From positions 12,317-76,316 of the forward strand of contig JBBQUV010000004.1 of the NCBI GenBank assembly GCA_038212075.1: DNA of 64,000 nt. Direction: 5' to 3'. Positions 1 through 49,764 of this stretch are shown piece after piece. Position 1 is the stretch's first letter, and each line of letters opens with the position of its first letter. This DNA comes from Minisyncoccia bacterium. Lineage in GTDB: Bacteria; Patescibacteriota; Minisyncoccia; Phycocordibacterales; Phycocordibacteraceae. Position numbers and translations under genes: made by a program. The notes beneath the pieces were generated by a model that saw nothing but the letters and a program-made list of their open reading frames with translations, was not told the origin of the DNA and searched no databases.

Positions 1-2081
1 AAAAACTCGGCGCTGAATTTGTCGCAGTGCGTTCAAGCGCAACTGCCGAGGACGGTGCGGCGGCGGCATGGGCAGGGCAACTTGATACGTACCTCAACAC
101 TACAGATGCGACCCTGCTTGAAAACGTACAACGTTGTTGGGCATCGCTATTCACACCGCGCGCGATCTTCTATCGTTTTGAAAAAGGACTTCACTCCACA
201 CACATTTCGGTCGCCGTTGTGATTCAAAAAATGGTTAACAGCGATGCCGCTGGTATCGCGTTTTCTGTGCACCCGGTTACCGAAGACTATAACCAGCTGA
301 TTATTGAAGCTGGGTTTGGGCTGGGTGAAGCCGTGGTGTCGGGGCAAGTAACGCCGGATTCCTATGTCATCACGAAAGTGCCACGAGAAATAATGGATAA
401 GAATATTTCCGAACAAACGCGCGCGATATATCGAAAAGAGGGAGGGGGAAATGAATGGCGCAACATCCCGACTGAAAAAGCATCGCTACAGGTACTTACC
501 GACGAGCAAATACTCGCACTTACCGAAACAGTCATTGGTATTGAAAAGCATTACGGCTTTCCTGTCGACACTGAGTGGGCAATGGAAAAAGGTGAAATGT
601 ACATCACTCAAAGCCGTCCTATTACGACACTCACCAATAATAACCAAGCAAGCGAATTACATTTTAATTCTCCAGCATTGCAGGGGTTTAATCCTACGGA
701 TTACGAGTACGACGGGCTTTGGAAGAATGATCTTTTCCCAACGTGTTTCTGGCAGGATTGTTGGGTGCCAGATGTCGTTACAGATATAAAGCTCGATATG
801 CAGGGGGCAGGAGTGATGAATTTGAAGGGAGGTCATTTCCTAATCAATAAAGCGGCTCGAGCAAACGTGGACGCACAAATCAAACAGATTATCGACGAAC
901 GGAACGGTGCGTTTTTCAAAAACCTTGTCAGTGTGTCGGACAATATATTCTCTTGGGCAGTTGAGAAAGGAGAAGAAATAAAAACAAAGCCACCCACGCT
1001 CGATGCTTTCCGAGATTTTGTAGCTACCGCAAAGAAAGTAAATTTTCTTTGGCTTATTGGTGCGTCCTATATCCAGTGGCCTGTAGAGGAACGACTGCAA
1101 GAAGCGATTATCGAAGATAAGATTCCAGCCGAACATGCTCTGGATGTTGTGCCCAAGGTTGATACGCCACTTATTCGGTATCAAGAGGGCTTGACCTCGC
1201 TTGCGAAGGAGGTAGAAGGAAAGTCATTTGCAGAGATCAAGAATGATCCAACCCTATACGAAAAACTTGAGACACATGCAAAAGCCTATTCGTGGATAGA
1301 GATTTTCAATTTTATTGGAGAACCGCTAACTCCCGAACGACTGTACGAACAGCTTGCGCATATCGATACAACAAAATCTTTGCACGCGTATGTTCCGTCC
1401 TCACCGCTTTCTTCGAAACTCCAGTTTGTCGCAGAGTGCATGCAAGCAGTGGGGTATGTAAAGCAAGCCGGAGCAGAATACTTCTCTATCTTTTCTGAAA
1501 AAACTATACCGTTTCTGCAAAAAGTCGCTGGTGAAATTGGGCTAACCTATCGAGAGCTTATGTGTCTTTTGGTTGATGAAGTTGACCAGGCGCTCGAAGG
1601 AAAAATCACTACTGAGGAATTGAAAAAAAGAGCCAACAAGCGCCTTGAGACAGTAGATTGGGTGGTCATCGGCGGCGCAGACGGCAAAATGATATTTGCT
1701 GATGATCCGGCCGACATTAATCTTCTTGTGGAAAAGATGGTTCCTCGCATCGGAGCAGGCACGCAGGAACTTGTGGGACAGATTGGCAACCGAGGTTCGT
1801 TCACTGGCCCAGCTCGGATCATTATGAATACGTATGACTTCAATAAATTACAGCCCGGTGACGTGCTGGTGACGACCATGACGACACCGGACTTTATCGT
1901 ACTTATGCAAAAGTCGGGAGCAATAGTTACCGACATAGGTGGGCTTTTATGTCATGCGGCAATTGTTTCGCGTGAGCTTGGAAAGCCATGTGTCATAGGT
2001 ACGAAATTTGCAACGCAATTGTTTAAGGACGGAGACATGGTGGAGGTGGACGGAGACAAAGGAGTAGTGCGGAAGATATAG
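1..2081 (+). CDS. PEP synthase / rifampicin-phosphotransferase-like protein: PPDK_N-type ATP-grasp nucleotide-binding region, helical linker, then C-terminal PEP-utilizing-enzyme mobile (swivel phosphohistidine) domain. 5' end lies outside the window; there is no C-terminal PEP/pyruvate TIM-barrel.
   Basis: The reading frame is open from nt 1 (KLGAEFVAVRSSATAEDGAAAAWAGQLDTY...). The PPDK_N-like motifs AGIAFSVHPVT and EAGFGLGEAVVSGQVTPDSY are present. The C-terminus reads VLVTTMTTPDFIVLMQKSGAIVTDIGGLLCHAAIVSRELGKPCVIGTKFA, which is the conserved swivel-domain His motif. Confidence 0.85.
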   Translation, partial: KLGAEFVAVRSSATAEDGAAAAWAGQLDTYLNTTDATLLENVQRCWASLFTPRAIFYRFEKGLHSTHISVAVVIQKMVNSDAAGIAFSVHPVTEDYNQLIIEAGFGLGEAVVSGQVTPDSYVITKVPREIMDKNISEQTRAIYRKEGGGNEWRNIPTEKASLQVLTDEQILALTETVIGIEKHYGFPVDTEWAMEKGEMYITQSRPITTLTNNNQASELHFNSPALQGFNPTDYEYDGLWKNDLFPTCFWQDCWVPDVVTDIKLDMQGAGVMNLKGGHFLINKAARANVDAQIKQIIDERNGAFFKNLVSVSDNIFSWAVEKGEEIKTKPPTLDAFRDFVATAKKVNFLWLIGASYIQWPVEERLQEAIIEDKIPAEHALDVVPKVDTPLIRYQEGLTSLAKEVEGKSFAEIKNDPTLYEKLETHAKAYSWIEIFNFIGEPLTPERLYEQLAHIDTTKSLHAYVPSSPLSSKLQFVAECMQAVGYVKQAGAEYFSIFSEKTIPFLQKVAGEIGLTYRELMCLLVDEVDQALEGKITTEELKKRANKRLETVDWVVIGGADGKMIFADDPADINLLVEKMVPRIGAGTQELVGQIGNRGSFTGPARIIMNTYDFNKLQPGDVLVTTMTTPDFIVLMQKSGAIVTDIGGLLCHAAIVSRELGKPCVIGTKFATQLFKDGDMVEVDGDKGVVRKI

Positions 2082-2084
2082 GGT

Positions 2085-3107
2085 ATGAGTGAGAAAAGAA
2101 TTATCTTTACCAAACCCTACGAGAGAGATTTTACGCTCGCGATAGAGGAGTATTGGGCGCGCGGATTTCTTGACGTCCTTCTGCCGCGCCTTGGCCTCAC
2201 GTCACCGTTTGAAATATTTGAAATCTTCTACGTCACCGAGGAGAACATGCAGATATGGGAAAATGAAGCAGCTATTCAATGGATACAGGACGAATTGCTT
2301 GCGCGAGTGAACGCCAACCATGCATTTCTTGATCCATATATAGCAGAATACATGGCGCTCCTTGCGCCACTTGAAACATTTTGGCACCAAGGAGCCACGA
2401 ATAACCTCTCCAAAATCAAAGAGTACAGCGAACTAATTCGAGTCGCCGCACCGCTTTTTTCGATGTGGTACTACCCGTGCATCGACGATCGGATTCCGGA
2501 GGATGTACTTATCCGACTGAAGGAGATTCGAAGGACCGATGAATTCTTCGCGAGCAACGATACTTTCATCAAGGACTGCATAGAGAAGCTCGGGGCGGAG
2601 CCGCGGCTCGGGAATCTCGTATATGCCGATGAATTTCCCAACATACCGAGTATGCAGGTACTGAAGATGCGTGCGGCAGGTGTCGTCGGCATCGACGGAA
2701 GACAGCAATTGGTAATGACACTTGAAGCGTATGCAAAGCAGCATCCGGAATATGAATTCGTCGGGTTGTTCGACAAGGTACCAGAGGTAAACGAAGTGAA
2801 AGGGCAGGTCGCGCAGAAGGGCATGGCGACTGGCACGGTGCGTATTGTGAAGAACAAGCGACAAATGCTCGACGTAAAAGATGGAGACATTTTGGTATCG
2901 CCGATGACCACACCTGACTTTCTCTCTGCGATGAAAAAAGCAGCAGCATTTGTTACTGATGAAGGTGGCATCATGTGTCATGCCGCTATCGTCGCTCGAG
3001 AAATGAAAAAGCCCTGCGTTATTGGAACTAAATTCGCAACACAAATCTTCAAGGACGGTGACCTGATAGAAGTAGATGCCGAACAGGGTATTATTAGGAA
3101 ACTATGA
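2085..3107 (+). CDS. PEP-utilizer swivel-domain paralog: helical domain plus C-terminal phosphohistidine mobile domain, with no ATP-grasp.
   Basis: C-terminus GDILVSPMTTPDFLSAMKKAAAFVTDEGGIMCHAAIVAREMKKPCVIGTKFATQIFKDGDLIEVD is near-identical in pattern to the gene 1 C-terminus. It starts 4 nt after the gene 1 stop. Confidence 0.8.
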   Translation: MSEKRIIFTKPYERDFTLAIEEYWARGFLDVLLPRLGLTSPFEIFEIFYVTEENMQIWENEAAIQWIQDELLARVNANHAFLDPYIAEYMALLAPLETFWHQGATNNLSKIKEYSELIRVAAPLFSMWYYPCIDDRIPEDVLIRLKEIRRTDEFFASNDTFIKDCIEKLGAEPRLGNLVYADEFPNIPSMQVLKMRAAGVVGIDGRQQLVMTLEAYAKQHPEYEFVGLFDKVPEVNEVKGQVAQKGMATGTVRIVKNKRQMLDVKDGDILVSPMTTPDFLSAMKKAAAFVTDEGGIMCHAAIVAREMKKPCVIGTKFATQIFKDGDLIEVDAEQGIIRKL

Positions 3108-3424
3108 TTATAAAAGGTATGGCAGCAAGCCAGGGCATCGCAGAAGGCTCAGTCAAGATCGTGATTGGCTCAAACGATATCAGTAAGTTCAAAGAAGGCG
3201 ATATTCTTGTCGCGGAGGTGACAGAGCCTTCAATGGTGCTCATGATGACTATGGCTGCTGCCATCGTTACCGATAAGGGCGGCATGACGACTCATGCAGC
3301 CATCGTTTCGCGCGAACTCGGCGTGCCGTGCGTCGTCGGAACCAGGGAGGCAACGACCACACTCAAGGACGGCATGCGGGTGCGTGTCGACGGTTCCGCC
3401 GGGACGGTCGAGATGCTCGATTGA
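3104..3424 (+). CDS. Stand-alone PEP-utilizing-enzyme mobile (swivel phosphohistidine) domain protein, 106 aa.
   Basis: MIIKGMAASQGIAEGSVKIV...GDILVAEVTEPSMVLMMTMAAAIVTDKGGMTTHAAIVSRELGVPCVVGTREATTTLKDG covers the swivel domain only. It overlaps the upstream stop by 4 nt (ATGA coupling). Confidence 0.8.
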   Translation: MIIKGMAASQGIAEGSVKIVIGSNDISKFKEGDILVAEVTEPSMVLMMTMAAAIVTDKGGMTTHAAIVSRELGVPCVVGTREATTTLKDGMRVRVDGSAGTVEMLD

Positions 3425-3425
3425 T

Positions 3426-4502
3426 ATGACTCCTTCCTGGATAGACGAGTATGCTCGCTCCGTCCACCAAGCGTATGTAGGAATGGTGCCATCGCGATGG
3501 TCTTCGCTTGACGGATTGAAAGCGTATCAGTCGCAGCAAGGAGCTTCCTTCATTTTTCTCGAGCGTCTGCGCATAAAGCATACGGAACTCGGTACGAAGC
3601 CGGAAGTACTTTTCAAACTTTTCAGTACTGCATCCACGCTCCGTGCCACTTTTTTGTTCCTCGCTTGGGAATACGCGAAGATATCAGATAAAAATGAGTA
3701 TCGTGTGCTCGCCCGAAACATATTCGATTGGCTCGATGGCATCCTTTCCGCGGGAATGCTCGAAGACAAATGGGTTCTTGCCAAGAATCTTATTCATACA
3801 TCCGAGGAAGTCGCAGGTACCCTTACCGATACTCCGTGGATAGAAGAAAACCTGCAGGCCGTGAAGGACGCGGGGAAGATGTATGTAAGCGCCGCGTCAA
3901 TAGGATTCGCCCTTTACCGCGACTTCTTTCCACAAGAAGCGCATGAAGCATACGGCCCTTATGACGCGAGCGAGCGTTTTGGTCCGGATACAACTCTTGT
4001 CGTAAAGCATTTCCCGAAATTGAAACCAGTCGAGCTCTGGCCCGAGGTGAAAAATTTTCCATACGAAGAAGTAACTATCTACCAGATATTGAAAGGAGTG
4101 CACTTCCGATGCGAACTTATCGGAATGCATTCTTTGTATGACGGTCCGTCTGTGCCGAACACAGCGGCCATAGCGGTAAAAGTAGACGGGCGCTTTCTGC
4201 CAGAAGATGAGATCGCGAAGGTTGCTATGGATATTGCGAAGCACGCAACCGAGTACTCGCATCTCTATGAGAAACTTACACTTCATGAAGCGAAGCTCAA
4301 ATTTGTCGAGTGGGAAACGTATCAGTTCAACCGGCTCTTCGAAGCCGCCGGCATGGACTGGCGTCCGACAGATGGGCTCCTCGCGCCTGTGATGGCCAAC
4401 GATATTCCTATGGGCATCTCCATCGATTCCTGGCCAGTATATGAGGAGTTCGTATCGAGTAAGGAGTACGAAGTGTTCTGGCTCCAAGACCTCTATAAAT
4501 AA
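3426..4502 (+). CDS. Hypothetical protein of the same array, without a swivel domain. Its ATG is 2 nt after the stop of the stand-alone swivel-domain gene.
   Basis: ORF with ATG at 3426 (MTPSWIDEYARSVHQAY...) immediately after the TGA at 3422-3424. There is no recognisable catalytic motif. Its position and translational coupling suggest it is the partner of the 106-aa swivel protein. Confidence 0.55.
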   Translation: MTPSWIDEYARSVHQAYVGMVPSRWSSLDGLKAYQSQQGASFIFLERLRIKHTELGTKPEVLFKLFSTASTLRATFLFLAWEYAKISDKNEYRVLARNIFDWLDGILSAGMLEDKWVLAKNLIHTSEEVAGTLTDTPWIEENLQAVKDAGKMYVSAASIGFALYRDFFPQEAHEAYGPYDASERFGPDTTLVVKHFPKLKPVELWPEVKNFPYEEVTIYQILKGVHFRCELIGMHSLYDGPSVPNTAAIAVKVDGRFLPEDEIAKVAMDIAKHATEYSHLYEKLTLHEAKLKFVEWETYQFNRLFEAAGMDWRPTDGLLAPVMANDIPMGISIDSWPVYEEFVSSKEYEVFWLQDLYK

Positions 4503-4515
4503 TAAGACGACATAC

Positions 4516-6171
4516 ATGAAGCCTTATGTAGCACTCGGAGTTCGCAATAGGACGCTGATGGAGGGGTATGGTCTTCTTGATTCCTATAAGCGACAGATAC
4601 CGGGTACGAAATGTCAGATAGAGAAGGCGCTCGACGTCGGAGAAGGGTACGCGGTGCGCCTCTGTCACAATGTTGAGGACAGGGCTCGTATTAGAAAGAT
4701 AATGGAAGAAGAGGTCCGTGCTGGCATATATACGCAAGAATTCTTCGACGCTATAGATACGACTTATAAAGATATAGTCAAAGATTTGAAATTCTTCGAG
4801 GAAGTCGATTTTAGTTCCATTAGTTCCGACGAAGTCCTCGCGTATTTCGACCATTTCTATCAGCTAGTTGTTACGACGGTTCATCCGATGGTTCTCGGAA
4901 TTTACGCTTCCGACTTGCAGGATGTGTTCGAAGCGGAACTCAAAACAGCTCTTGGGAATGATGCAAACGATGAAGTAGTGCTCAGTCATACTGCACTTCT
5001 TCTTACCCCTACTCGTCTTATAACCGTCCAGAAGGAAGAACAGCGGCTCTTTGAGATACAGGATCGTTTTGAGCACGAATATCCCTCAGGAACGGACGAG
5101 CAGTACGAAATCTGGAGTAAGCAACCCGATGCAGCTGTATTATTCGATACTCTTGTCACAAATCTCGGTTGGTTCCATATGGAATACCTTGGCGAGCCGC
5201 GTACCGCCGAGGAATATCAAAAGCAGATCGGAGAGCGCATCGCTGATCTCCGGAAGGCGGGGATCGAATGGACAACCCAGCAATCTCCGAAAGCACGTCT
5301 TGAAGAGCTGACGGGCGAACAGAAAGCATTTTTCGCTCGCCACTCTGATACCGCTCTACTGCAAGCGCTTGTCTTTACGATGCAGGAATATCTCATCGTC
5401 CTTGATTTCTCTAAAGCCGATCTCATTGAGGGATTGTATTATTCGAGACCCCTTCTTGCTGAGCTCGGCAAGCGCGTCGGACTCGATTCGTGGATAGACG
5501 TTCGTTACCTTACGCTGGAAGAATTGCGCGCATTCATACACGAGAAAAGGATAGTGAATAAAGACTACATCCGGGAGCGCAAGGAATACTGGACTGCGCT
5601 ACTTGAGGACGGTGTCATCAGTCTCACGTACGGTAGAGAAGCGCGTGAACTTACTGATCGGATTCTCGAGAAAGATGAGGTTACTGATACAAAAGAGTTC
5701 AAAGGGCTTTCCGCATATCCCGGAGTTGTCCGGGGAATTGCGTGTGTAGTAACTTCAGCTAAGGATCGCGACAAATTTAAACAGGGACAGATACTCGTGA
5801 CCGTAGATACGACAACGGAGCTTACATCTATTATCAAAAAATCCGCCGCCATCGTCGCGGACCAGGGAGGTTTGCTTTCCCATACCGCCATCGTTTCCCG
5901 CGAGTTCAAGATTCCGTGCATCGTCAGAACGAAGATAGGTACGAAGCTTGTGAAGGATGGGGATGAGATCGAAGTAGATGCTGGTAAGGGCATTGTCCGG
6001 ATCCTTAACCAGAGAGAAAAGATTCTGCTATGCTTGCTGTATAACCAAAACTATTTATGGAACAAGGCTTCAGGCATACATACGCGGAAGGGAACGAGAA
6101 GGCTCCGAAGGCATTTCATCTTCGAATGCATATCTTCCGACATGGGAAGAAGGACGGCCCTCATGACGTGA
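4516..6171 (+). CDS. PEP-utilizer swivel-domain paralog: helical linker region plus C-terminal phosphohistidine domain, no ATP-grasp.
   Basis: C-terminus GQILVTVDTTTELTSIIKKSAAIVADQGGLLSHTAIVSREFKIPCIVRTKIGTKLVKDGDEIEVD. The upstream linker (LTLEELRAFIHEKRIVNKDYIRERKEY...TKEFKGLSAYPGVVRGIACVV) aligns with the corresponding region of gene 1. The motif LGWFHMEYLGEPRTAEEY is shared with genes 1, 7 and 8. Confidence 0.75.
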   Translation: MKPYVALGVRNRTLMEGYGLLDSYKRQIPGTKCQIEKALDVGEGYAVRLCHNVEDRARIRKIMEEEVRAGIYTQEFFDAIDTTYKDIVKDLKFFEEVDFSSISSDEVLAYFDHFYQLVVTTVHPMVLGIYASDLQDVFEAELKTALGNDANDEVVLSHTALLLTPTRLITVQKEEQRLFEIQDRFEHEYPSGTDEQYEIWSKQPDAAVLFDTLVTNLGWFHMEYLGEPRTAEEYQKQIGERIADLRKAGIEWTTQQSPKARLEELTGEQKAFFARHSDTALLQALVFTMQEYLIVLDFSKADLIEGLYYSRPLLAELGKRVGLDSWIDVRYLTLEELRAFIHEKRIVNKDYIRERKEYWTALLEDGVISLTYGREARELTDRILEKDEVTDTKEFKGLSAYPGVVRGIACVVTSAKDRDKFKQGQILVTVDTTTELTSIIKKSAAIVADQGGLLSHTAIVSREFKIPCIVRTKIGTKLVKDGDEIEVDAGKGIVRILNQREKILLCLLYNQNYLWNKASGIHTRKGTRRLRRHFIFECISSDMGRRTALMT

Positions 6172-6950
6172 CCCCCGAAGTGGATATGGTAATGGCCCTG
6201 AAATCGGAAGGCAGGATGCAAGCCCATGAGAAAGGTGTCAGTTTAGGAACAACGGGCGGCGTTGCAAGTGGTAGCAGCCGAGCGCGTACCCGTGAGACCG
6301 CGATGCACGTCGCGCACGCGAATAATCCGGAAATAAAAGGTACCGAAACCTATGAAGAACTGGTTGAGAAACTGGGTAGGCCGTGGACGAATAAGGCATT
6401 CGACATGCCGTTTAGCAAGGATGACGAAGATTTTCCCATCATCCTAGAGAAATCGAATGACGGTACGCTCCTCAAATGGTGTGCTGAGCAGGCTGATAAG
6501 GCGCTTGTGGAAGGAGACGCGAGCAATACCATTTACGGTACCCAGGCGCGCGAGATAGCAAAAGTCTTAGTACGTTTCGCGGCCATAGCGTCAAAAATGG
6601 CGGACCGTGCCGAACTTATGTTTGAGCGTGGCGAAGAACCAGAAACTGAGCGTGAACAAGTGATGGGAACACATGCGGGCGTGAATGAGTCATTCGTCGC
6701 CGAAGTCGTGAAGCGTACGCTTGGCGAGGATGAACGACAGAAACTGCTGGACGCCGTCCCATCCGGTGTTATGGAAACGCAAGGGTCGGACATCAATATC
6801 GTGGCTCGCCCTGGCGGAGAAGAACCACGCATCCACCTAAGATTCGAAGGAGGAAAAGAACAGAAATATATCTTTGATCAGGATGTCCCTCTCTCAGTCA
6901 TTCGTAGCATTATCAAAGATTTTTCTCCGAGAGAAACCCCAGAAGCATGA
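6126..6950 (+). CDS. Histidine phosphatase superfamily (phosphoglycerate-mutase/SixA-like branch) protein.
   Basis: N-terminal MHIFRHGKKDGPHD (RHG catalytic motif), GVASGSSRARTRETA (the SS-x-RA-x-TA motif) and a distal QVMGTHAGVNESFV (second catalytic His). The start is chosen at the ATG just before RHG. The longer ORF from 6057 overlaps the upstream gene further. Confidence 0.6.
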   Translation: MHIFRHGKKDGPHDVTPEVDMVMALKSEGRMQAHEKGVSLGTTGGVASGSSRARTRETAMHVAHANNPEIKGTETYEELVEKLGRPWTNKAFDMPFSKDDEDFPIILEKSNDGTLLKWCAEQADKALVEGDASNTIYGTQAREIAKVLVRFAAIASKMADRAELMFERGEEPETEREQVMGTHAGVNESFVAEVVKRTLGEDERQKLLDAVPSGVMETQGSDINIVARPGGEEPRIHLRFEGGKEQKYIFDQDVPLSVIRSIIKDFSPRETPEA

Positions 6951-8527
6951 ATAAGAACCTTGAATGGTTCTGGGCGCACCGGAGGAATTCAAGCCTTCAT
7001 CATATGAGTTTTCTTATGCGTGGACTCGCAGGGAAGGGGTGGGCGCCCGCGGTTGATTTCTGGTTTGATAATCAGGCGTTTGTGGGCGTTCCTGGTAAAG
7101 GAATTTATATCTTTTACGATAAGCATCAGCTTTCGTCAGAGGGGAAATACAAGGATGTACAGGAAAGTATCGATAAAAATCCGGATTTTGTAGGAGATTT
7201 CAAGAAACGTACCGATGAATTATTCGGCGCAATATTTGCGAGCTGTAAGCAGATTGATGCCGCGGACCTGGTCGCCTTTACGGATACAGAACTCGAAGCA
7301 CTCTACGTCGAGATACTCTCGAGTTTGATGATTGCACCGATTATCTCGGTCCAGCTTTGGGGTATTGAAGCATGTTTCGATGAGAGCTATCGTATTATTC
7401 GTTTCTTGCGTTCACGGCTTGAGGAACTCCATAAGAGTCGAGATTTTGATACCTACCGCGGGTTACTATCTGTGAACACAGGCGAGACCGTTGCTTTCAC
7501 CGAGCAGAAAGATTTCTATGGCGTTGCGGCTCAGATAGCGCGCGTGCCTGAACTCGCCATTTTATTCGCTGGTGAAAATACTGCGAGTGCAAGTACTGCA
7601 TTAAAACGTTTTCCGAAAGAGGATGCGCTTTTTACCGGACATGTCTCAAAATATGAGTGGATGCATTCGGAATATGTTGGGCATGCATGGTCGCGTGAAA
7701 AATGGATAGCACTCTTTCAAAAAGCATTCCGGGAGACCTTAAGGCCAGAGGAGAAGCTTAAGGAACTGCTTGAGAATTTTGCCGAACAGAACGCGGAGCG
7801 AAATAATGCGATCGCAGAATTGTCACCACCACCGGACGTACTTCATGCCATAGATGCGCTCGGTGAATTTATTGCACAACGTGATTGGACCAAGGGATAT
7901 TTTACGAAGATACTGCTCAGTTATCACAAACTGCTGGACGAGATAGGTCGGCGTCACGGTCTCGCGCGCACAGAGCTTTTCGACTACTCATATATCGAGG
8001 TTCAGGAACTTCTTGCTTCTGGCAACAGACTTTCAAACGAAGAACTCAAAAGTCGTAAGCAAGATGGTTTCGCTGTAGTAATTACGGGAGGTGACTTCAA
8101 TCTTACGACTGGTAAGGATGCAATTGCTAGTGTCATCAACACGGAAGGATTGGCTGAGCCGTTTGAGAAATATATGAACGTCTCAGAATTCAAGGGACTT
8201 GCCGCTTCGCGCGGGCACATCACCGGGAAGGCGAGAGTACTTGAAGATGCTTCACGGATTTCGGAACTTCAACCCGGAGAGATACTGGTAACATACATGA
8301 CGACGATTGAATTTATCCCGGCTTTCCGAAAGGCCGCCGCCGTAGTGACAGACGAGGGCGGCATGTCGTGTCATGCCGCGATCATTAGTCGTGAATTCAA
8401 GCTACCTTGCGTGGTGGGAACAAAAGTTGCCACAAGAGTGGTGCAAACGGGCGATACGCTTGAGGTAGATGCGATCCACGGAATTATAAAGATACTTGAT
8501 TCGGCAACACCGTCTGACGCTGTATAA
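6947..8527 (+). CDS. PEP-utilizer swivel-domain paralog: N-terminal helical domain plus C-terminal phosphohistidine domain.
   Basis: C-terminus GEILVTYMTTIEFIPAFRKAAAVVTDEGGMSCHAAIISREFKLPCVVGTKVATRVVQTGDTLEVD. The linker LARTELFDYSYIEVQELLASGNRLSNEELKSRKQDGFAVVITGGDFNL...GHITGKARVL parallels the gene 1 linker, and WMHSEYVGHAWSREKW matches the shared motif. ATGA overlap with the upstream gene. Confidence 0.75.
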   Translation: MNKNLEWFWAHRRNSSLHHMSFLMRGLAGKGWAPAVDFWFDNQAFVGVPGKGIYIFYDKHQLSSEGKYKDVQESIDKNPDFVGDFKKRTDELFGAIFASCKQIDAADLVAFTDTELEALYVEILSSLMIAPIISVQLWGIEACFDESYRIIRFLRSRLEELHKSRDFDTYRGLLSVNTGETVAFTEQKDFYGVAAQIARVPELAILFAGENTASASTALKRFPKEDALFTGHVSKYEWMHSEYVGHAWSREKWIALFQKAFRETLRPEEKLKELLENFAEQNAERNNAIAELSPPPDVLHAIDALGEFIAQRDWTKGYFTKILLSYHKLLDEIGRRHGLARTELFDYSYIEVQELLASGNRLSNEELKSRKQDGFAVVITGGDFNLTTGKDAIASVINTEGLAEPFEKYMNVSEFKGLAASRGHITGKARVLEDASRISELQPGEILVTYMTTIEFIPAFRKAAAVVTDEGGMSCHAAIISREFKLPCVVGTKVATRVVQTGDTLEVDAIHGIIKILDSATPSDAV

Positions 8528-8534
8528 TTTTTGC

Positions 8535-9959
8535 ATGAATAAAACCGATATTTTAGAGAAGAAATGGATTAACTATGGACGGTGGACACAGCCGACCATT
8601 TCAGGCGCCTTTTGGACACACTGGGATGAAGCAGAGTGCGCGCGTGAAGTAAGTCAGGACTCTCCGCTCCCGGCGATCGTATTCCTCGACGGGTACCATC
8701 TTACTCCTCTGGATGAAGACCATGCAGTGAAGACTTATTTTAATAAACGATACAGCGAAGGAACGCTTGGAGAATTTCTTGAGAAATTTGAGACATCATC
8801 AAAGAAAAGCGAAGCGCGGATCCTTGCGATTCTTGGCAATACGATGCTTTCTAATGCTGAATACGCACGAGAGCTTTTTGCTGCCTTTCTCGAGGTTGTT
8901 GGCGCGTGGTCATTCCTTTTCCGGTTCTCCACGTCACTTGAAGAAATCGCACGCGAACAAGGACTAGCTGTAAGTGACGACGATATCTTGCGGCATATGC
9001 GTCCCTATACCCGCGTTACGTTGCTCGAGCAGCAGACCATTGAACTTAAAGAATTCGCGCGGGCATTGCGTGCGCAATACCCAGCTATTCCAGTAACAGA
9101 ACTCACTAAACATGTAATGGATGACGCGTCGACGCCCCTTCTCGCTAAAATTCATGATCATGTTCAGGAATTTTCCTGGTTTGGCACACATCACTGGGAA
9201 GGAGAGCCCTACACGCTCGAAAAATGCCTTTCTGATATTCAAGACATACTGAATAAGGGAGGGGATGTGGAAGAGGGATCAGTTGCCGTATCGTCGAGCG
9301 AAGGCGATCAGACCATATGGAAACTTCTCGCAGCTTTTGCATATTGGCGCACCCACTGCGCAGAAGTGAGTGACAAAGCGGCATACCTTTCGCGTGAACG
9401 ACTTACGGATGTGGCAAAGAAATGGAGTATTACCTACGAGGAGCTTACTTGGCTTTCAAGTGGAGAGATTATAAAAGCGCTTGATATAAGTGAGGACTCT
9501 ATTGAGCTCCCCACAAACTTTGCTGAACGAAAAGCTGGATATGGGGCATGGGTTGATAACGGTGTTGAGCATATTGTTGTTGGTGCAGAACTCGCCACAC
9601 TCATTGATGCGGCTGTTCCAAAAGTTGATACTTCCGTGTCTGAGATTAAAGGAACTGTCGCAAGCAAGGGTGGCGTAATTACCGGTATCGCACGCATCAT
9701 TATGGGGCCAAGTGAATTTGCCAGTTTTGTCGCGGGAGATATTTTGGTCGCAAACGAAACCACACCAGACTTCGTTCCGCTTATGAAAAATGCCGCGGCA
9801 ATTGTGACTGATACGGGCGGCATTACTTCTCACGCGGCAATTGTTTCTCGTGAGCTTAAGAAGCCCTGTGTTATAGGCACCAAAATCGCAACGAAAGTAT
9901 TCAAAAATGGCGATATGGTTGAAGTGGATGCAATTAACGGAATTGTCCGAAAGATATAA
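8535..9959 (+). CDS. PEP-utilizer swivel-domain paralog: N-terminal helical domain plus C-terminal phosphohistidine domain.
   Basis: C-terminus GDILVANETTPDFVPLMKNAAAIVTDTGGITSHAAIVSRELKKPCVIGTKIATKVFKNGDMVEVD. The linker LTYEELTWLSSGEIIKALDISEDSIELPTNFAERKAGYGAWVDNGVEHIVVGAE...GVITGIARII and the motif FSWFGTHHWEGEPYT match the others. Confidence 0.75.
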   Translation: MNKTDILEKKWINYGRWTQPTISGAFWTHWDEAECAREVSQDSPLPAIVFLDGYHLTPLDEDHAVKTYFNKRYSEGTLGEFLEKFETSSKKSEARILAILGNTMLSNAEYARELFAAFLEVVGAWSFLFRFSTSLEEIAREQGLAVSDDDILRHMRPYTRVTLLEQQTIELKEFARALRAQYPAIPVTELTKHVMDDASTPLLAKIHDHVQEFSWFGTHHWEGEPYTLEKCLSDIQDILNKGGDVEEGSVAVSSSEGDQTIWKLLAAFAYWRTHCAEVSDKAAYLSRERLTDVAKKWSITYEELTWLSSGEIIKALDISEDSIELPTNFAERKAGYGAWVDNGVEHIVVGAELATLIDAAVPKVDTSVSEIKGTVASKGGVITGIARIIMGPSEFASFVAGDILVANETTPDFVPLMKNAAAIVTDTGGITSHAAIVSRELKKPCVIGTKIATKVFKNGDMVEVDAINGIVRKI

Positions 9960-19062: not shown

Positions 19063-20631
19063 ATGTTTTGGGCAGACCGCGTTGCTAAAGAGATTCAAGA
19101 TACCCGCGCACAAAGCGGGAAGAAACTGATTATCCGCGACGAAAAAACTCTCTCCGGTCGTGTGCATATTGGTGCTATGCGTGGTGTTGCTATTCATGGC
19201 ATTGTGAACGAAATCCTTACCGAATACGGCGTAGAAAACGAATACCTCTACGAACTTAATGACTTTGATCCCTTTGATACGGTGCCGGGTTATTTAGATC
19301 AAGAGACATTTAAAGAACATTTGGGTAAACCATTGTATGCAGTGCCGTCACCAGAAGCAGGATATGAAAACTACGCTGAATACTTTGGCGCTGAATTTGT
19401 AGCGGTGCACAAAAAAGCAGGGTTTATGCCGGCCTACTACCGCACCTATGCCGATCTCTACAAGGCGGGAAAGATGAACGATCTTATTCGTACGGCTCTT
19501 GAACGCGCCGCTGACATCCGCAGGATTTTAAAAGATGTTTCCGGTTCTGTAAAAGATGAGTCGTGGCTTCCTGTTTCGGTTGTGTGTGAGGAGTGCGGAA
19601 AAATGATGACCACGCGTGCGTTTGATTTTGATGGAGAAACCGTTGGCTATGCCTGCGATAAAAACCCCGATGGTGCCGTATCGTGCGGGCACACGGGACG
19701 ACTTGCTCCATGGGATGGTGCCGCAAAACTTTTTTGGAAGGCAGACTGGGCGGCAAAATGGGTGGCAAAGAAAGTAGATGTTGAAGGCGCGGGTAAAGAC
19801 CACTCCACCAAGGGTGGTGCTCGCGACGTGAGCAATCATATTGCACGGGAACTATTTGGATTTGCTTCACCGTTTGATATTCCCTACGAATTTTTCCTTG
19901 TTGGTGGTGCAAAAATGTCTTCGAGTAAAGGAAGGGGAACATCGGCAAAAGATATGGCGGAACTGTTTCCGTCGCAGATTCTGCGTCTTATTTTGATTGG
20001 TAAAGACATCAATCAGCAAATAAATGTGGATCCTTCCGGAGATTCTGTTCCTCGTATGTACGATTGGTACGATGATCTTGCCGAACAGGTACGAAATGGT
20101 GTTGAAGACGACTATGCGCGGCTATTCACGCTTGCCCAGCTTCCCGACGCTCGAGCAAATGTGACTGCGCCATGGATGATGCGATTCCGTGAAGTGGCAT
20201 TCATTGTGCAAATGCCACATCTTGATTTGACGCAGGAAGCGAAACGCGCAAAGGGAAGTGAACTTTCTCCGGAAGAAACGCGCGCGCTTGGTGAACGAGC
20301 AGAATATGCAAAATTCTGGCTTGCTACCTATGCACCGGAAGAATTTAAATACGTGCTTCAGGAAACGTTTCCAGTGGTTACGTTGTCAGACGTACAAAAG
20401 AACGCACTCTCTCTTTTGTATACGTTTATGAACGAAGCGCCACGTACGGGCGAAGAGGTGCATGCAAAATTGCACGAACTTAAAACCGTAGCCCCAATTG
20501 CACCAAAGGAATTATTTACTGCGCTCTACGGTATTTTCCTGAATCGTGAATCCGGACCAAAGGCAGGATGGTTTTTGTCGGTGCTTCCACGTGACTTTGT
20601 GCTCGCGCGCTTGAAAGAAGCTATAGGATAA
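19063..20631 (+). CDS. lysK: Lysyl-tRNA synthetase, class I (archaeal-type LysK).
   Basis: Class I HIGH-type motif in SGRVHIGAMRGVAIHG and KMSKS-type motif KMSSSKG. It has the Rossmann-fold class I architecture, not the class II LysS anticodon-binding OB fold. Confidence 0.82.
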   Translation: MFWADRVAKEIQDTRAQSGKKLIIRDEKTLSGRVHIGAMRGVAIHGIVNEILTEYGVENEYLYELNDFDPFDTVPGYLDQETFKEHLGKPLYAVPSPEAGYENYAEYFGAEFVAVHKKAGFMPAYYRTYADLYKAGKMNDLIRTALERAADIRRILKDVSGSVKDESWLPVSVVCEECGKMMTTRAFDFDGETVGYACDKNPDGAVSCGHTGRLAPWDGAAKLFWKADWAAKWVAKKVDVEGAGKDHSTKGGARDVSNHIARELFGFASPFDIPYEFFLVGGAKMSSSKGRGTSAKDMAELFPSQILRLILIGKDINQQINVDPSGDSVPRMYDWYDDLAEQVRNGVEDDYARLFTLAQLPDARANVTAPWMMRFREVAFIVQMPHLDLTQEAKRAKGSELSPEETRALGERAEYAKFWLATYAPEEFKYVLQETFPVVTLSDVQKNALSLLYTFMNEAPRTGEEVHAKLHELKTVAPIAPKELFTALYGIFLNRESGPKAGWFLSVLPRDFVLARLKEAIG

Positions 20632-46998: not shown

Positions 46999-49764
46999 AT
47001 GGAGGGAGCATTTGAGGCACCAGCACAACCCTTGCAGAGCCCTGAAGAGGAGCTCGCGTATTTGCGTGCGCAGGTGCAGGCAAAAGAAAAACAGCTTGCG
47101 GCGCTTCAGCAAGAACAACCGCGAGAAGCGATTGTAGAGGAACGCATTTTGCACCATCACCAAGCGGCACCACAAACCGTGCTCGCGCCACAGTACGAAC
47201 TGCCACAAACCGAAGCGCATGCGCTCGCGCTTAATCTTGACCCAGAAGCCGACGACGAAACCATGAGCGAACTTCGTGGGATTATGGAAGAAAAGGGCAT
47301 TAAAAACGCGCTTACTGTTCTTGAAAAATTAAACAGCCCGCACTTGGAGGACGATTTTCATCGGTTTCTTGCCCAATACATTCTTTCTGGAATGCCGGCG
47401 CGCGGGCTTGAAGAAAAGAAACCAGAATGGAAGGCACTTCATATGACGCTCTACGAAATTGCGCTTCCAGAACCGTCTGCGGAAGACGAACAAAATAATC
47501 GCGTCAAGCCGCTCAAAGAGCTTATTTCTGCGATGGAGCAGTTTTATTCAGGAATGCTTTCGGTAGAACACGCCGACCCAAACGAACCATCATATTTTTC
47601 AATGGAGCTTGCGGTGCCTGCAAACCATGCACAACTTTTCTTTTATGTGGGCGTACCAAACCATAAAAAAGACCTCTTTGAGAAACAAATACTTTCCATA
47701 TTTCCAAACGCACGCATCATACCGCAATCAAACGACTACAACATTTTTGTGCCTGATGGCTCAGCGTGCGGGTCGGTGGCTTCGCTTGCCACGTGGCCTG
47801 CACTCCCTCTAAAAGACTACGAAAACTTTGACTACGACCCATTGAATAGTGTGCTCAACGCATTTGCAAAAATAGAAGCAGAAGGAGAAGGTGCGGCGCT
47901 CCAAATTATTATTGAACCAGCAGGAGAGCAATACCACGAGCATTATAGAAAAATCCTCCAAGGGCTTCGCAAGGGAGAGAACCGACTGCGCGCACTTTCA
48001 ACACCAGCTGGCTTGCTCGGAGAGACTGCGCGAGAATTTGGCAGTTTCTTGTTTGGCGCCACCAAAGAAAAGAAAGAAGAATACGAAAATAAAATTCGTA
48101 GTTCCGATATAAACAAATTGGATATAGAGCAAGTGGAGCGCAAAATCGCTACGCCAATCGTGAACACCACTATTCGCATGATTGTCTCATCGTCCGACGC
48201 ACACCGCGCGCAGGCGGGGCTTATAGATCTTGAATCGTCATTCAATCAATTTACAAACACGGTAGGGAACCAGCTTACGTTTAATCGCCCAACTGCATCG
48301 CGTGCAAAGAGTGTTTTCCACGACTTCTCCTACCGGCTCCCATCTTCCACGAAGATGCCCCTTTCTTTGAAGGAAATCACGACCATGTATCACTTCCCAC
48401 CAAAGGGAATAGAATCGACGCCACAATTGAGCCAGTCGCGCTTCACGGCCGCGGCCGCGCCACTTGGTATTCCCCAAGCGGGCACGCTTCTTGGTACCAA
48501 TTCATTCCGTGGAAAGACATCCAACGTATGTCTTGAGCTTGAAGACCGTTTGCGCCACCTCTACATCATTGGACAAACCGGTACTGGTAAAACAGTGTTT
48601 ATGAAAAATCTTGCCATTCAAGATATTCTTGCAGGCAATGGCGTGTGCTTCATTGATCCGCACGGTAACGACATTTTGGATATTCTTGCCGCCATTCCAC
48701 CCGAACGCTATGAAGACGTCATTTATTTTGACCCAGCAGACATCAAACGTCCGTTCGGACTTAATCTTTTGGAATACGATGCCGCGCATCCGGAGCAAAA
48801 AACATTCATCGTGAACGAACTACTCGCCATTTTCCGTCGTTTGTACGGCGATGTTCCTGAGTCTATGGGTCCCGCGTTTGAACAGTACTTCAGAAACGCA
48901 ACGCTTCTCGTGATGGAAGACCCCGCTTCGGGTTCCACTCTGCTCGATGTCGCACGGGTGCTTTCAAACAAACCATTCCGTGATTTGAAGCTCAGCAAGA
49001 GTACCAATCCGGTCATCAATCAATTCTGGCGTGAAATTGCCACACAGGCTGGTGGGGAAGCCTCGCTTGAAAATATCGTGCCCTACATCACCAACAAATT
49101 TGACGACTTCACGGCAAACGATTTTATGCGCCCGATTGTCGGTCAGCAAGAATCGTCCTTTAACTTCCGTGAAGTCATAGATACGAAAAAGATATTGCTC
49201 GTGAATCTTTCAAAGGGTCGCCTTGGTGAACGAAACGCAAACCTGCTAGGGCTTATCTTGGTGGGCAAGCTCTTTATGGCGGCATTGTCGCGTGCCGACG
49301 CCCCCGGTACGCAATTCCCACCATTCTTCTTGTATATCGACGAATTCCAGAACATCACCACCGATTCTATTCCTGGTATTTTGTCGGAAGCCCGCAAATA
49401 CAAGCTTTCCCTCAATATCGCGCACCAATTCCTTGCGCAAGTTGACGAAAAAATTCGCGATGCGGTGTTTGGCAACGTTGGCTCCATGGCAGTATTCCGC
49501 GTCGGGCAGGAAGATGGAGAATTCTTTGAAAAACAATTTGCACCAACCTTTACCGCACTGGATTTTGTGAACATTGAAAACTACAACGCATATATCAAGA
49601 TTCTTGCAAAAGGTGTGCCGCAGAAACCATTTAATATAAAAACACCGGCACCGTTTGCGGGAAATCCAAATCAAATAGATGACCTGCGTGAACTATCATT
49701 CCTTACCTATGGGCGCGACCGTCAACAGGTAGAGAGTATGATTCACGCTCGCTATCTGTCATAA
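46999..49764 (+). CDS. VirD4/TraG/TraD-like type IV coupling-protein-family ATPase (FtsK/HerA clade) with a long N-terminal coiled-coil/acidic region and no obvious TM anchor.
   Basis: Walker A YIIGQTGTGKTVFMKN. Walker B / DEFQN box FFLYIDEFQNITTDSIPGILSEARKYKLSLNIAHQFLAQV (TraG-D_C-like). Downstream FRVGQEDGEFF. 921 aa. Confidence 0.6.
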   Translation: MEGAFEAPAQPLQSPEEELAYLRAQVQAKEKQLAALQQEQPREAIVEERILHHHQAAPQTVLAPQYELPQTEAHALALNLDPEADDETMSELRGIMEEKGIKNALTVLEKLNSPHLEDDFHRFLAQYILSGMPARGLEEKKPEWKALHMTLYEIALPEPSAEDEQNNRVKPLKELISAMEQFYSGMLSVEHADPNEPSYFSMELAVPANHAQLFFYVGVPNHKKDLFEKQILSIFPNARIIPQSNDYNIFVPDGSACGSVASLATWPALPLKDYENFDYDPLNSVLNAFAKIEAEGEGAALQIIIEPAGEQYHEHYRKILQGLRKGENRLRALSTPAGLLGETAREFGSFLFGATKEKKEEYENKIRSSDINKLDIEQVERKIATPIVNTTIRMIVSSSDAHRAQAGLIDLESSFNQFTNTVGNQLTFNRPTASRAKSVFHDFSYRLPSSTKMPLSLKEITTMYHFPPKGIESTPQLSQSRFTAAAAPLGIPQAGTLLGTNSFRGKTSNVCLELEDRLRHLYIIGQTGTGKTVFMKNLAIQDILAGNGVCFIDPHGNDILDILAAIPPERYEDVIYFDPADIKRPFGLNLLEYDAAHPEQKTFIVNELLAIFRRLYGDVPESMGPAFEQYFRNATLLVMEDPASGSTLLDVARVLSNKPFRDLKLSKSTNPVINQFWREIATQAGGEASLENIVPYITNKFDDFTANDFMRPIVGQQESSFNFREVIDTKKILLVNLSKGRLGERNANLLGLILVGKLFMAALSRADAPGTQFPPFFLYIDEFQNITTDSIPGILSEARKYKLSLNIAHQFLAQVDEKIRDAVFGNVGSMAVFRVGQEDGEFFEKQFAPTFTALDFVNIENYNAYIKILAKGVPQKPFNIKTPAPFAGNPNQIDDLRELSFLTYGRDRQQVESMIHARYLS

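Follow-up and report, generated by a model that had tools for sequence, protein, structure and literature searches.

A tandem array of histidine-swivel proteins with a single ATP-grasp domain in a Patescibacteria bacterium as a putative split, multiplexed dikinase

Results

Organization of the array

One end of the window, a 64,000-nucleotide stretch of DNA from a Patescibacteria bacterium with a tiny genome, carries at positions 1-9959 eight close-set genes (g1-g8), six of which encode a PEP-utilizers swivel domain and only one of which encodes an ATP-grasp. We read this array as a split His-swivel dikinase that is multiplexed and akin to rifampin phosphotransferase (RPH) or the two-component small-molecule dikinases, an interpretation to which we give a probability of roughly 0.6. 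A split and diversified RPH-like system had been proposed in a first-pass annotation of this DNA, and the proposal is supported by the predicted fold of g7, the alignment of catalytic residues, the presence of no more than one ATP-grasp per array, and natural fusions of the modules. The two-component enzymes HpeHI, CreHI, and PpsAB, in which an ATP-grasp subunit and a subunit containing the RD and swivel domains form only a transient complex (PMC12167813), offer a precedent for action in trans and were counted in favor of this reading. The genes are as follows.

g1: 1..2081, + strand, start before position 1; ATP-grasp, RD-like helical domain and C-terminal swivel, RPH-like (PPDK_N, E 4e-68; PEP-utilizers, E 6e-25)
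g2: 2085..3107, + strand; short N-domain (G2N) and swivel (PEP-utilizers, E 1e-26)
g3: 3104..3424, + strand; bare 106-aa swivel (PEP-utilizers, E 3e-28)
g4: 3426..4502, + strand; 358-aa alpha+beta domain of no known family
g5: 4513..6171, + strand; RD-like domain and swivel (PEP-utilizers, E 8e-21; RD superfamily)
g6: 6057..6950, + strand; histidine-phosphatase-superfamily enzyme (His_Phos_1, E 4e-5)
g7: 6947..8527, + strand; RD-like domain and swivel (PEP-utilizers; RPH-like model)
g8: 8535..9959, + strand; RD-like domain and swivel (PEP-utilizers, E 8e-26; RD superfamily)

From g1 to g8 the genes are separated, in order, by 3 nt, an ATGA overlap, 1 nt, 10 nt, a 115-nt overlap, an ATGA overlap, and 7 nt, bearing out the tight, co-directional arrangement noted in the first-pass annotation. 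The PF00391 swivel was matched in g1, g2, g3, g5, g7, and g8 with E values from 8e-21 to 3e-28, and all six retain the catalytic histidine within a GGxx[CST]H[AT]AI motif. The six motifs quoted earlier (CHAAIVSRE, CHAAIVARE, THAAIVSRE, SHTAIVSRE, CHAAIISRE, and SHAAIVSRE) are exact and lie inside the PEP-utilizers domain; the histidine codons are at nt 1953-1955 (g1), 2979-2981 (g2), 3293-3295 (g3), 5881-5883 (g5), 8372-8374 (g7), and 9831-9833 (g8). Among the eight genes PPDK_N was matched by g1 only. A hidden ATP-grasp in the N-terminal regions would have made the other genes ordinary full-length paralogs; the N-domains of g2, g5, g7, and g8, as well as g4, aligned to an ATP-grasp profile with hhalign probabilities below 1%, and the g7 model is helical and resembles the RD of RPH. 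In agreement with the first-pass annotation, none of the eight proteins matched the PEP/pyruvate TIM barrel (PEP-utilizers_C, PF02896). A domain search found no output or DNA-binding domains in the eight genes, and PADLOC returned no matches.

We also considered whether these genes are pseudogenes, or fragments that frameshifts have cut from a smaller set of longer PEP-synthase-like genes. The g5 protein ends in an unusual C-terminal extension of ~55 aa (about nt 6010-6171) that overlaps g6, and a swivel orthologous to g5 in locus L001, 86% identical, ends right after GIVRKLNP with no such extension. The short length of g3, 106 aa, would also fit this possibility. However, every gene has separate orthologs of the same length in other genomes, including g2, g4, g6, g7, and g8, 262 of the 263 related swivels keep the histidine, the pairing of a bare swivel with g4 is conserved, and the g7 and g4 models have pLDDT values of 89.7 and 95.8. 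These observations contradict an origin by artefact or decay, which we consider highly improbable.

The ATP-grasp gene and the RD superfamily

The g1 reading frame is open to the window edge and its N-terminus is therefore cut off; the PPDK_N match covers profile positions 105-318, clipped by the window start, so that the completeness of the ATP-grasp is a matter of the sequence beyond the window. The portion present is 64-71% identical to the ATP-grasps of other loci. The PDB sequence matches of g1 are PEP synthase and RPH-Lm, and with the RPH, PigC, and PpsA models it scores well below the curated cut-off in each case. Against the rifamycin-inactivating phosphotransferase models NF041857 and NF000283, g1 gave 290 bits where the cut-off is 999 and 215 where it is 1700.

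Searches with the N-domains of g5, g7, and g8 and with the middle region of g1 converged on the same ~220 ORFs, which constitute one superfamily. This RD superfamily is homologous, in sequence and in fold, to the rifampin-binding domain of RPH, and the array proteins thus resemble the substrate subunits of PpsAB, CreHI, and HpeHI. The homology of the helical region to g1 claimed in the first-pass annotation therefore stands for g5, g7, and g8; between g8 and g1 the identity is 37% across 278 aa. It stands only in part for g2, which contains a distinct, shorter domain. That domain, G2N, is ~235 aa long and constitutes a family of its own, with 16-18 ORFs among the loci examined; its relation to the start of the g1 middle domain (hhalign 96%) is confined to the first ~120 residues. 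G2N is fused behind g1-like genes in three loci (L008, L036, and L052). The W-x-E-Y-x-G-E-P motif described as shared with g1 proved to be loose, with the tryptophan kept in 156 of 187 RD domains and the tyrosine in 113.

The best-conserved ortholog group of the array is that of g7, with ~90 full-length members at 35-69% identity in Patescibacteria and DPANN. The AF2 model of g7 (helical in its N-domain) has as its best Foldseek matches the RPH-Lm structures 5fbs, 5hv1, and 5fbt, with E ~1e-13 and TM scores of 0.5-0.59, and aligns with the RPH-Lm RD and swivel over ~570 columns. The g7-family profile aligns with RPH-Lm residues 512-867 with an E value of 7e-32. Within the family R312-D313..K316 is invariant and aligns to R666-E667..K670 of RPH, an enzyme whose second phosphotransfer step requires R666 and E667 (PMC4844700). 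Among the RD proteins of the array, only g7 appears to have the full RPH-type R-[DE]-x-x-K. Domains this divergent are difficult to align with certainty; the aligned positions read L-D..K in g5, R-T..A in g8, and K-Q..A in g1. Each residue of the motif is kept in about half to two thirds of the 187 RD domains. Full-length orthologs of g5 adjoin those of g7 in the DPANN loci L014 and L018, and an ortholog of g8 in L008, 55% identical, directly follows a g6-like gene.

The g3 and g4 proteins and the histidine phosphatase

The g3 protein is a bare swivel and g4 has no swivel, as the first-pass annotation stated. The g4 sequence had no match in Pfam, NCBIfam, or the PDB sequences. Its model is confident (pLDDT 95.8), no solved structural relative of the predicted domain was found, and g4 has 86 separate orthologs of the same length. 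A short swivel-only gene lies directly upstream of the g4 homologs in three other loci (L083, L084, and L085), and elsewhere the g4 domain occurs in fusions of the forms SW-G4, G4-AG, and SW-AG-G4. Judged from these sequences, g3 and g4 form a split unit with g3 as the carrier half, and g4 is a candidate third, acceptor-substrate domain of a dikinase.

The assignment of g6 as a histidine phosphatase was upheld. The His_Phos_1 match is weak, just above the cut-off, and the homologs of g6 carry PF00300. The RHG motif is at aa 28-30 (nt 6138), and of the catalytic residues R28, H29, and H206 are present in 15 of 15 family members and R77 in 14. Genes of the g6 type were encountered 15 times within swivel arrays. 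The enzyme would either act as a phosphatase or mutase on a phosphorylated product or reset the phosphohistidine of a swivel. SixA is also a member of the His_Phos_1 family, and a regulatory phosphorelay could be envisioned in which the swivels are carriers or sensors that control proteins or transcription and g6 resets the phosphohistidine in the manner of SixA. Elsewhere, an HTH_17/MerR DNA-binding domain is fused to an RD-swivel protein (in L002, 11572-13227, and in P0103), and a TrmB regulator is near the L002 gene. The eight genes themselves, however, have no output or DNA-binding domains, g7 retains the residues with which RPH binds the substrate phosphate, and the closest characterized relatives are all small-molecule kinases or ligases. 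We therefore find a regulatory role quite unlikely.

Arrays and fusions in other genomes

Defining an array as at least three swivel modules in one gene run, we found 33 arrays in 29 of 83 sources surveyed, with a total of 158 swivel modules and 12 ATP-grasp genes. The layout recurs across ultra-small bacteria (Patescibacteria) and archaea (DPANN) and reaches 9-12 modules. No array contained two ATP-grasps, and 21 of the 33 had none in the same gene run; for these the donor could be the product of a gene outside the run, or something other than an ATP-grasp. ATP-grasp ORFs that stand alone, ~315-340 aa long, were found repeatedly at array edges. In L052 a single ORF of 3376 aa encodes seven swivel modules together with one ATP-grasp, the linkers between them being in frame; since these swivels are mutually only 50-66% identical, the protein is not an artefact of collapsed repeats. 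Smaller fusions of ATP-grasp and swivels are present in L023, L036, L008, and L045, and the natural fusions span 2-7 swivels per ATP-grasp.

These data also bear on whether the modules need g1 at all. They could be independent phosphotransferases that shuttle phosphate from small phosphorylated donors to acceptors or are charged by an enzyme encoded elsewhere, clustered through common descent and not through a shared ATP site. HpeH alone transfers phosphate from 4-phosphoacetophenone to acetovanillone (PMC12167813), most arrays lack an ATP-grasp in the run, and the g6-g7 pairs of L001 and L002 have no PPDK_N within 10 kb. The natural fusions, on the other hand, unite one ATP-grasp with several modules in one polypeptide, stand-alone ATP-grasp genes recur beside the arrays, and the arrays are devoid of any PEP-binding domain. 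We consider independence of g1 unlikely.

Across all loci the swivels are ~52% identical, compared with 10-25% for the RD domains, a pattern that suggests a conserved carrier and a variable acceptor. Clustering divides the 187 RD domains into 95 groups, and 11 of the twelve largest have one member per locus; from these sequence comparisons the array modules appear to be old paralogs. At matched RD identity, the identity between two swivels of one locus exceeds that between swivels of different loci by only 2-3 points, which gives little sign of co-adaptation of the swivels to a shared partner.

A special case of the split dikinase, differing in substrates alone, would be a battery of resistance kinases in which every module inactivates its own antibiotic or toxin out of those that a cell encounters in epibiotic life. 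That RPH is the closest solved structure and that the acceptor domains are so diverse would fit this proposal. Yet the ortholog groups are old and kept across phyla and domains, g7 being present at one copy per locus, which is more what one would expect of housekeeping substrates than of an arms race. Every RPH-model score is also far below its cut-off and PADLOC identified nothing, making a resistance battery improbable.

Discussion

Proposed mechanism

In the split dikinase that we favor, the ATP-grasp of g1 would bind ATP and load a phosphoryl derived from the beta-phosphate onto a swivel histidine, releasing AMP and Pi. It would charge its own swivel and, in trans, those of g2, g3, g5, g7, and g8, each of which would pass the phosphoryl to a substrate in its own acceptor domain: the RD-like domains of g1, g5, g7, and g8, the shorter G2N of g2, and, for the bare swivel g3, g4 as a protein of its own. 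One ATP site would in this way phosphorylate up to six different putative substrates, probably small molecules. With an RD and swivel of its own, g1 could also act purely in cis.

In ultra-small symbionts, bacterial and archaeal alike, these uncharacterized modules take up conserved runs of several genes in genomes that are very small. From the span of the arrays we roughly estimate that they could occupy some 1-2% of a genome of ~1 Mb. Should a single ATP-grasp serve many acceptors, the arrangement would be an economical, modular form of kinase chemistry and a candidate explanation for the handling of scavenged metabolites and possibly for missing kinases. We suggest only tentatively that Patescibacteria and DPANN share, partly by inter-domain transfer, a modular dikinase platform with one ATP site and many acceptor modules, one or more of them with an acceptor fold that lacks precedent (g4), together with seven-swivel megaproteins. 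Such a platform could generally phosphorylate or trap many host-derived metabolites, and it might replace conventional kinases missing from reduced genomes. The g4 domain and the 3376-aa megaprotein offer concrete structural and enzymatic targets for the study of swivel-domain phosphotransfer.

Comparison with known systems

Genes of this kind are named phosphoenolpyruvate synthase/pyruvate phosphate dikinase in databases. The array shares the ATP-grasp with PpsA and PPDK, a likeness that does not extend to PTS enzyme I, and shares with all three a swivel bearing GGxx[CST]HAAI. The TIM barrel of PpsA, PPDK, and enzyme I is absent from the array genes, all scores against the PpsA and PPDK models are below the cut-off, and no HPr or EII of a PTS was found. 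The view of the first-pass annotation that this is not a PTS, PEP synthase, or PPDK is thus sustained, with equivalog scores far below curated cut-offs, and the database labels are misleading for metabolic reconstruction, where they can wrongly imply gluconeogenic capacity.

Like g1, the prodigiosin ligases PigC, RedH, and HapC are single chains built of the three domains, and they gave partial NCBIfam matches, but the scores are far below the cut-off (about 250 bits vs 1300) and the array has no prodiginine gene context. RPH (5FBS/5FBT/5FBU, 5HV1; PMC4844700) has the same domain order as g1, with the ATP-grasp followed by the helical substrate domain and the C-terminal swivel, and its RD and swivel are superposed by the g7 model. 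The RD sequence identity in that structural alignment is only ~17%, the full R-E..K motif of RPH is not kept at the (uncertainly) aligned positions of g1, g5, and g8, and nothing points to rifamycin as a substrate of the array. In the equivalog comparison g1 reaches less than a third of the cut-off (290 bits vs 999).

The first-pass annotation could place the array in no described system. This is only partly the case, as the split two-component small-molecule dikinases PpsAB, CreHI, and HpeHI have been described and are the closest kind (PMC12167813). We found no literature description of one ATP-grasp with many acceptor modules, and this one-to-many layout, the spread in Patescibacteria and DPANN, and the g4 domain are, as far as we could find, the apparently undescribed part. 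In the two-component enzymes the substrate subunit has an RPH-like domain and a C-terminal His swivel with no ATP-grasp, like g5, g7, and g8; g2 has only a shorter, partly related domain in place of the RPH-type substrate domain. The ATP-grasp is supplied separately and the mechanism proceeds through a phosphohistidine swivel, features to which we liken the array on the basis of sequence and models. The stand-alone ATP-grasp genes of related loci resemble HpeI or PpsB, whereas the ATP-grasp of the present array sits in a full single-chain enzyme, g1. HpeHI, CreHI, and PpsAB pair one substrate subunit with one ATP-grasp, while here a single ATP-grasp accompanies six swivels, or 5-6 acceptor modules, and in relatives a gene run can hold as many as 9 swivel modules. 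Finally, those enzymes act on phenolics in aromatic-degrading Proteobacteria and Actinobacteria, and the hosts of the arrays are Patescibacteria and DPANN.

Eight genes with one ATP-grasp

Window positions 1-9959 hold eight tightly packed genes (g1-g8, numbered 5' to 3'), all on the + strand, whose junctions are, in order, 3 nt, an ATGA overlap, 1 nt, 10 nt, a 115-nt overlap, an ATGA overlap and 7 nt. The best-supported reading, to which we give a probability of about 60%, is that the array is a multiplexed form of the two-component small-molecule dikinase scheme. The ATP-grasp (AG) of g1 would charge its own swivel (SW), the PEP-utilizers mobile domain with the phospho-acceptor His, and would charge the swivels of g2, g3, g5, g7 and g8 in trans. 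Each swivel would then pass the phosphate on within the acceptor domain that belongs to it, which for g3 is g4. We infer this charging in trans, its stoichiometry and the substrates; g1 could be purely cis-acting, a point against multiplexing.

Genes of the array and their Pfam matches (window coordinates)
g1: <1..2081, + strand; PPDK_N (ATP-grasp) and PEP-utilizers swivel; ORF open at window start, N-terminus missing
g2: 2085-3107, + strand; PEP-utilizers swivel
g3: 3104-3424, + strand; PEP-utilizers swivel
g4: 3426-4502, + strand; no Pfam match
g5: 4513-6171, + strand; PEP-utilizers swivel
g6: 6057-6950, + strand; weak His_Phos_1 match
g7: 6947-8527, + strand; PEP-utilizers swivel
g8: 8535-9959, + strand; PEP-utilizers swivel

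The first-pass annotation had placed an ATP-grasp in the first gene only and had seen no PEP/pyruvate TIM barrel. The Pfam search bears out both points, with PPDK_N in g1 alone and the barrel absent from all eight genes, and the six swivel His motifs that the annotation quoted were each located and are exact. The usual database labels for these genes, PEP synthase or PPDK, are wrong because the TIM barrel is missing; scores against the curated NCBIfam models PpsA, PPDK, RPH, PigC/RedH and EI were all far under cut-off. Every gene has same-length orthologues, which shows the genes to be separate units and not frameshift pieces. The same orthologues contradict an explanation by artefact or pseudogenes, which retains almost no likelihood.

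The array region is core chromosome and not a mobile or defence island. Its neighbours are housekeeping genes (holB, frr, rseP, proS, mreB, PBP2 genes and class-I lysS) and the base composition of the window is even. A defence system was considered and dropped, there being no PADLOC matches. Rfam and tRNA scans found no RNA genes in the window, and promoter and terminator counts were at or under shuffle expectation. The class-I lysyl-tRNA synthetase (tRNA-synt_1f, window 19063-20631) stands in a bacterial context, which agrees with an origin of the window in Patescibacteria. Elsewhere, two adjoining large + strand ORFs, 46999-49764 (921 aa) and 49772-52750 (992 aa), have no Pfam match at E <= 1e-5.

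The acceptor domains and their likeness to RPH

In an all-against-all BLAST comparison, sequence links among g1, g5, g7 and g8 reach well upstream of the swivel. Iterated profile searches of the related loci, begun from the N-domains of g5, g7 or g8 or from the middle of g1, led to the same ~220 ORFs, and these profiles are unrelated to ATP-grasp, so that no ATP-grasp is hidden there. The annotation had extended a g1-like linker to g2, g5, g7 and g8. This stands for the last three, while g2 has a distinct, shorter N-domain (G2N) of which the first ~120 residues are like the start of the g1 middle region.

The link from g7 to the rifampin phosphotransferase RPH was reached only by profile and fold search; PDB sequence searches with the g7 N-domain alone and with g4 gave no match. 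An AlphaFold2 model of g7, made from 27 orthologues (pLDDT 89.7), found its best PDB fold matches in the RPH structures 5FBS, 5HV1, 5FBT and 5FBU (E ~1e-13, ~570 aligned columns, TM up to 0.59). The g7-family profile aligned with RPH-Lm residues 512-867 at E 7e-32, and in the profile alignment R312, D313 and K316, invariant in the g7 family, fall on RPH R666, E667 and K670. The second phosphotransfer of RPH requires R666 and E667 (PMC4844700). Given the profile convergence, the g7 fold and the RPH alignment, g5, g7 and g8 each pair a rifampin-binding-like domain (RD) with a swivel, and g1 has ATP-grasp, RD and swivel in a single full chain. The RPH motif is complete in g7 only: g5, g8 and g1 deviate at aligned positions, and among 187 related domains each motif residue is kept in just half to two thirds. 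Such degeneracy in several modules counts against the multiplexed reading.

The g3-g4 unit and g6

Close homologues of g4 number 86 (~360 aa, in Patescibacteria), its family has 494 representatives in a library of 1.84 billion proteins, and its structural model is very confident (pLDDT 95.8). D166, Y179, W205 and D311 belong to a conserved pocket of g4. A swivel-only short gene lies directly upstream of g4 homologues at the related loci L083, L084 and L085, with a stand-alone PPDK_N gene after the homologue at L083. The best 150 of the 494 representatives include 16 swivel-g4 fusions, one g4-ATP-grasp fusion (P0306) and one swivel-ATP-grasp-g4 fusion (P0341). These neighbours and fusions show g3 and g4 to be one split unit, in which g4 takes the place of a dikinase's third domain, on the acceptor side. 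Two tandem g4 domains (G4-G4) also occur in 5 of these best 150 of 494, for example P0214 and P0215.

PF00300 was found in g6 homologues. Among the family members in the related loci, R28, H29 and H206 are invariant (15/15) and R77 is kept in 14/15. The g6-like genes occur within swivel arrays, most commonly as the immediate upstream neighbour of a g7-like or g8-like gene, and g6 may act in product processing or in carrier reset. Homologues place the true start of g6 at 6057, and g5 therefore has an abnormal tail that overlaps it.

Features of the g5/g6 overlap (window coordinates)
g5 tail: 6010-6171, + strand; ~55 aa beyond the normal swivel end, 115-nt overlap with g6
g6 start region: 6057-6192, + strand; overlapped by the g5 tail

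GIVRKLNP closes the orthologous swivel in L001. In the public annotation, g6 (P0207, 252 aa) is given a start beyond the g5 stop, which leaves out the catalytic RHG motif.

Arrays and fusions in related genomes

Scanning one genome for each species gave 79 related loci; stop-to-stop ORFs were annotated by profiles. By record titles the large majority are from Patescibacteria or DPANN, with some titles naming other taxa; the few Clostridia among them carry single-chain enzymes. Full-length g7 orthologues (about 90, 35-69% identity) come from Parcubacteria/Patescibacteria and DPANN archaea. Across the loci the counts are 191 for RD-swivel proteins, 21 for bare swivels, 15 for g6-like genes and 14 for ATP-grasps that stand alone. 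There are 33 co-directional arrays of three or more swivel modules, in 29 of 83 sources; together they contain 158 swivel modules versus 12 ATP-grasp genes, never more than one ATP-grasp per array. Against multiplexing, 21 of the 33 have no ATP-grasp in the same gene run. That the modules are independent phosphotransferases, or are fed by another phosphate donor, we consider unlikely.

Locus L008 is syntenic with the window: a fused g1-like and g2-like gene is followed by g5-like, g7, g6 and g8 genes. Fusion goes furthest in a Parcubacteria MAG (L052, 695-10822), where one uninterrupted ORF of 3376 aa encodes an ATP-grasp and then seven swivel modules, of which two are of G2N type and five of RD type, in the order AG-G2N-SW-RD-SW-G2N-SW-RD-SW-RD-SW-RD-SW-RD-SW. 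Its linkers are in-frame, and its neighbours on either side are RD-swivel genes. It is not a collapsed repeat, since its swivels are mutually only 50-66% identical. Shorter uninterrupted fusion ORFs read RD-SW-AG-RD-SW-RD-SW (L023) and AG-G2N-SW-RD-SW (L036).

Judged by sequence, a conserved carrier goes with very diverse acceptor domains, identity across all loci being ~52% for swivels versus 10-25% for RD domains. Clustering at 28% identity divides the 187 RD domains into 95 groups, and 11 of the 12 largest have one member per locus, which marks the paralogues as old and distinct. That the array is a battery of resistance kinases like RPH, which would be a special case of multiplexing, fits poorly with such old, single-copy orthologue groups and is quite unlikely. 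The idea that swivels have co-adapted to a shared ATP-grasp was set aside, as the excess identity within a locus, only 2-3 points, is too weak as evidence; this small excess also counts against the multiplexed reading.

Orthologues of g7 and g5 are adjacent and convergent in two DPANN archaea, Norongarragalinales (L014, 1054-4274) and Micrarchaeota (L018, 9959-13019). The association thus spans the boundary between bacteria and archaea, which suggests transfer between domains.

At L002 (11572-13227, also P0103) a 551-aa protein begins with a DNA-binding domain of HTH_17/MerR type, to which an RD-like region and a swivel are fused. Its gene comes immediately after a g7 orthologue, and a TrmB regulator gene is found upstream, which hints at regulatory use of the same module. 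Fusions of this kind in relatives, and the family to which g6 belongs, speak for a regulatory phosphorelay, an explanation of the array that we still hold to be quite unlikely.

Comparison with known systems

The literature searched, incomplete in coverage, yielded no description of the one-to-many arrays and of how common they are in Patescibacteria/DPANN, of the megaprotein fusions or of the g4 acceptor domain. The His-swivel dikinase as a kind of enzyme is already known, as is its split two-component form. The closest characterised systems are HpeHI, CreHI and PpsAB, in which an ATP-grasp subunit and an RD-plus-swivel subunit form a transient complex, and the swivel His accepts the beta-phosphate of ATP and then hands it to a phenolic substrate (PMC12167813).
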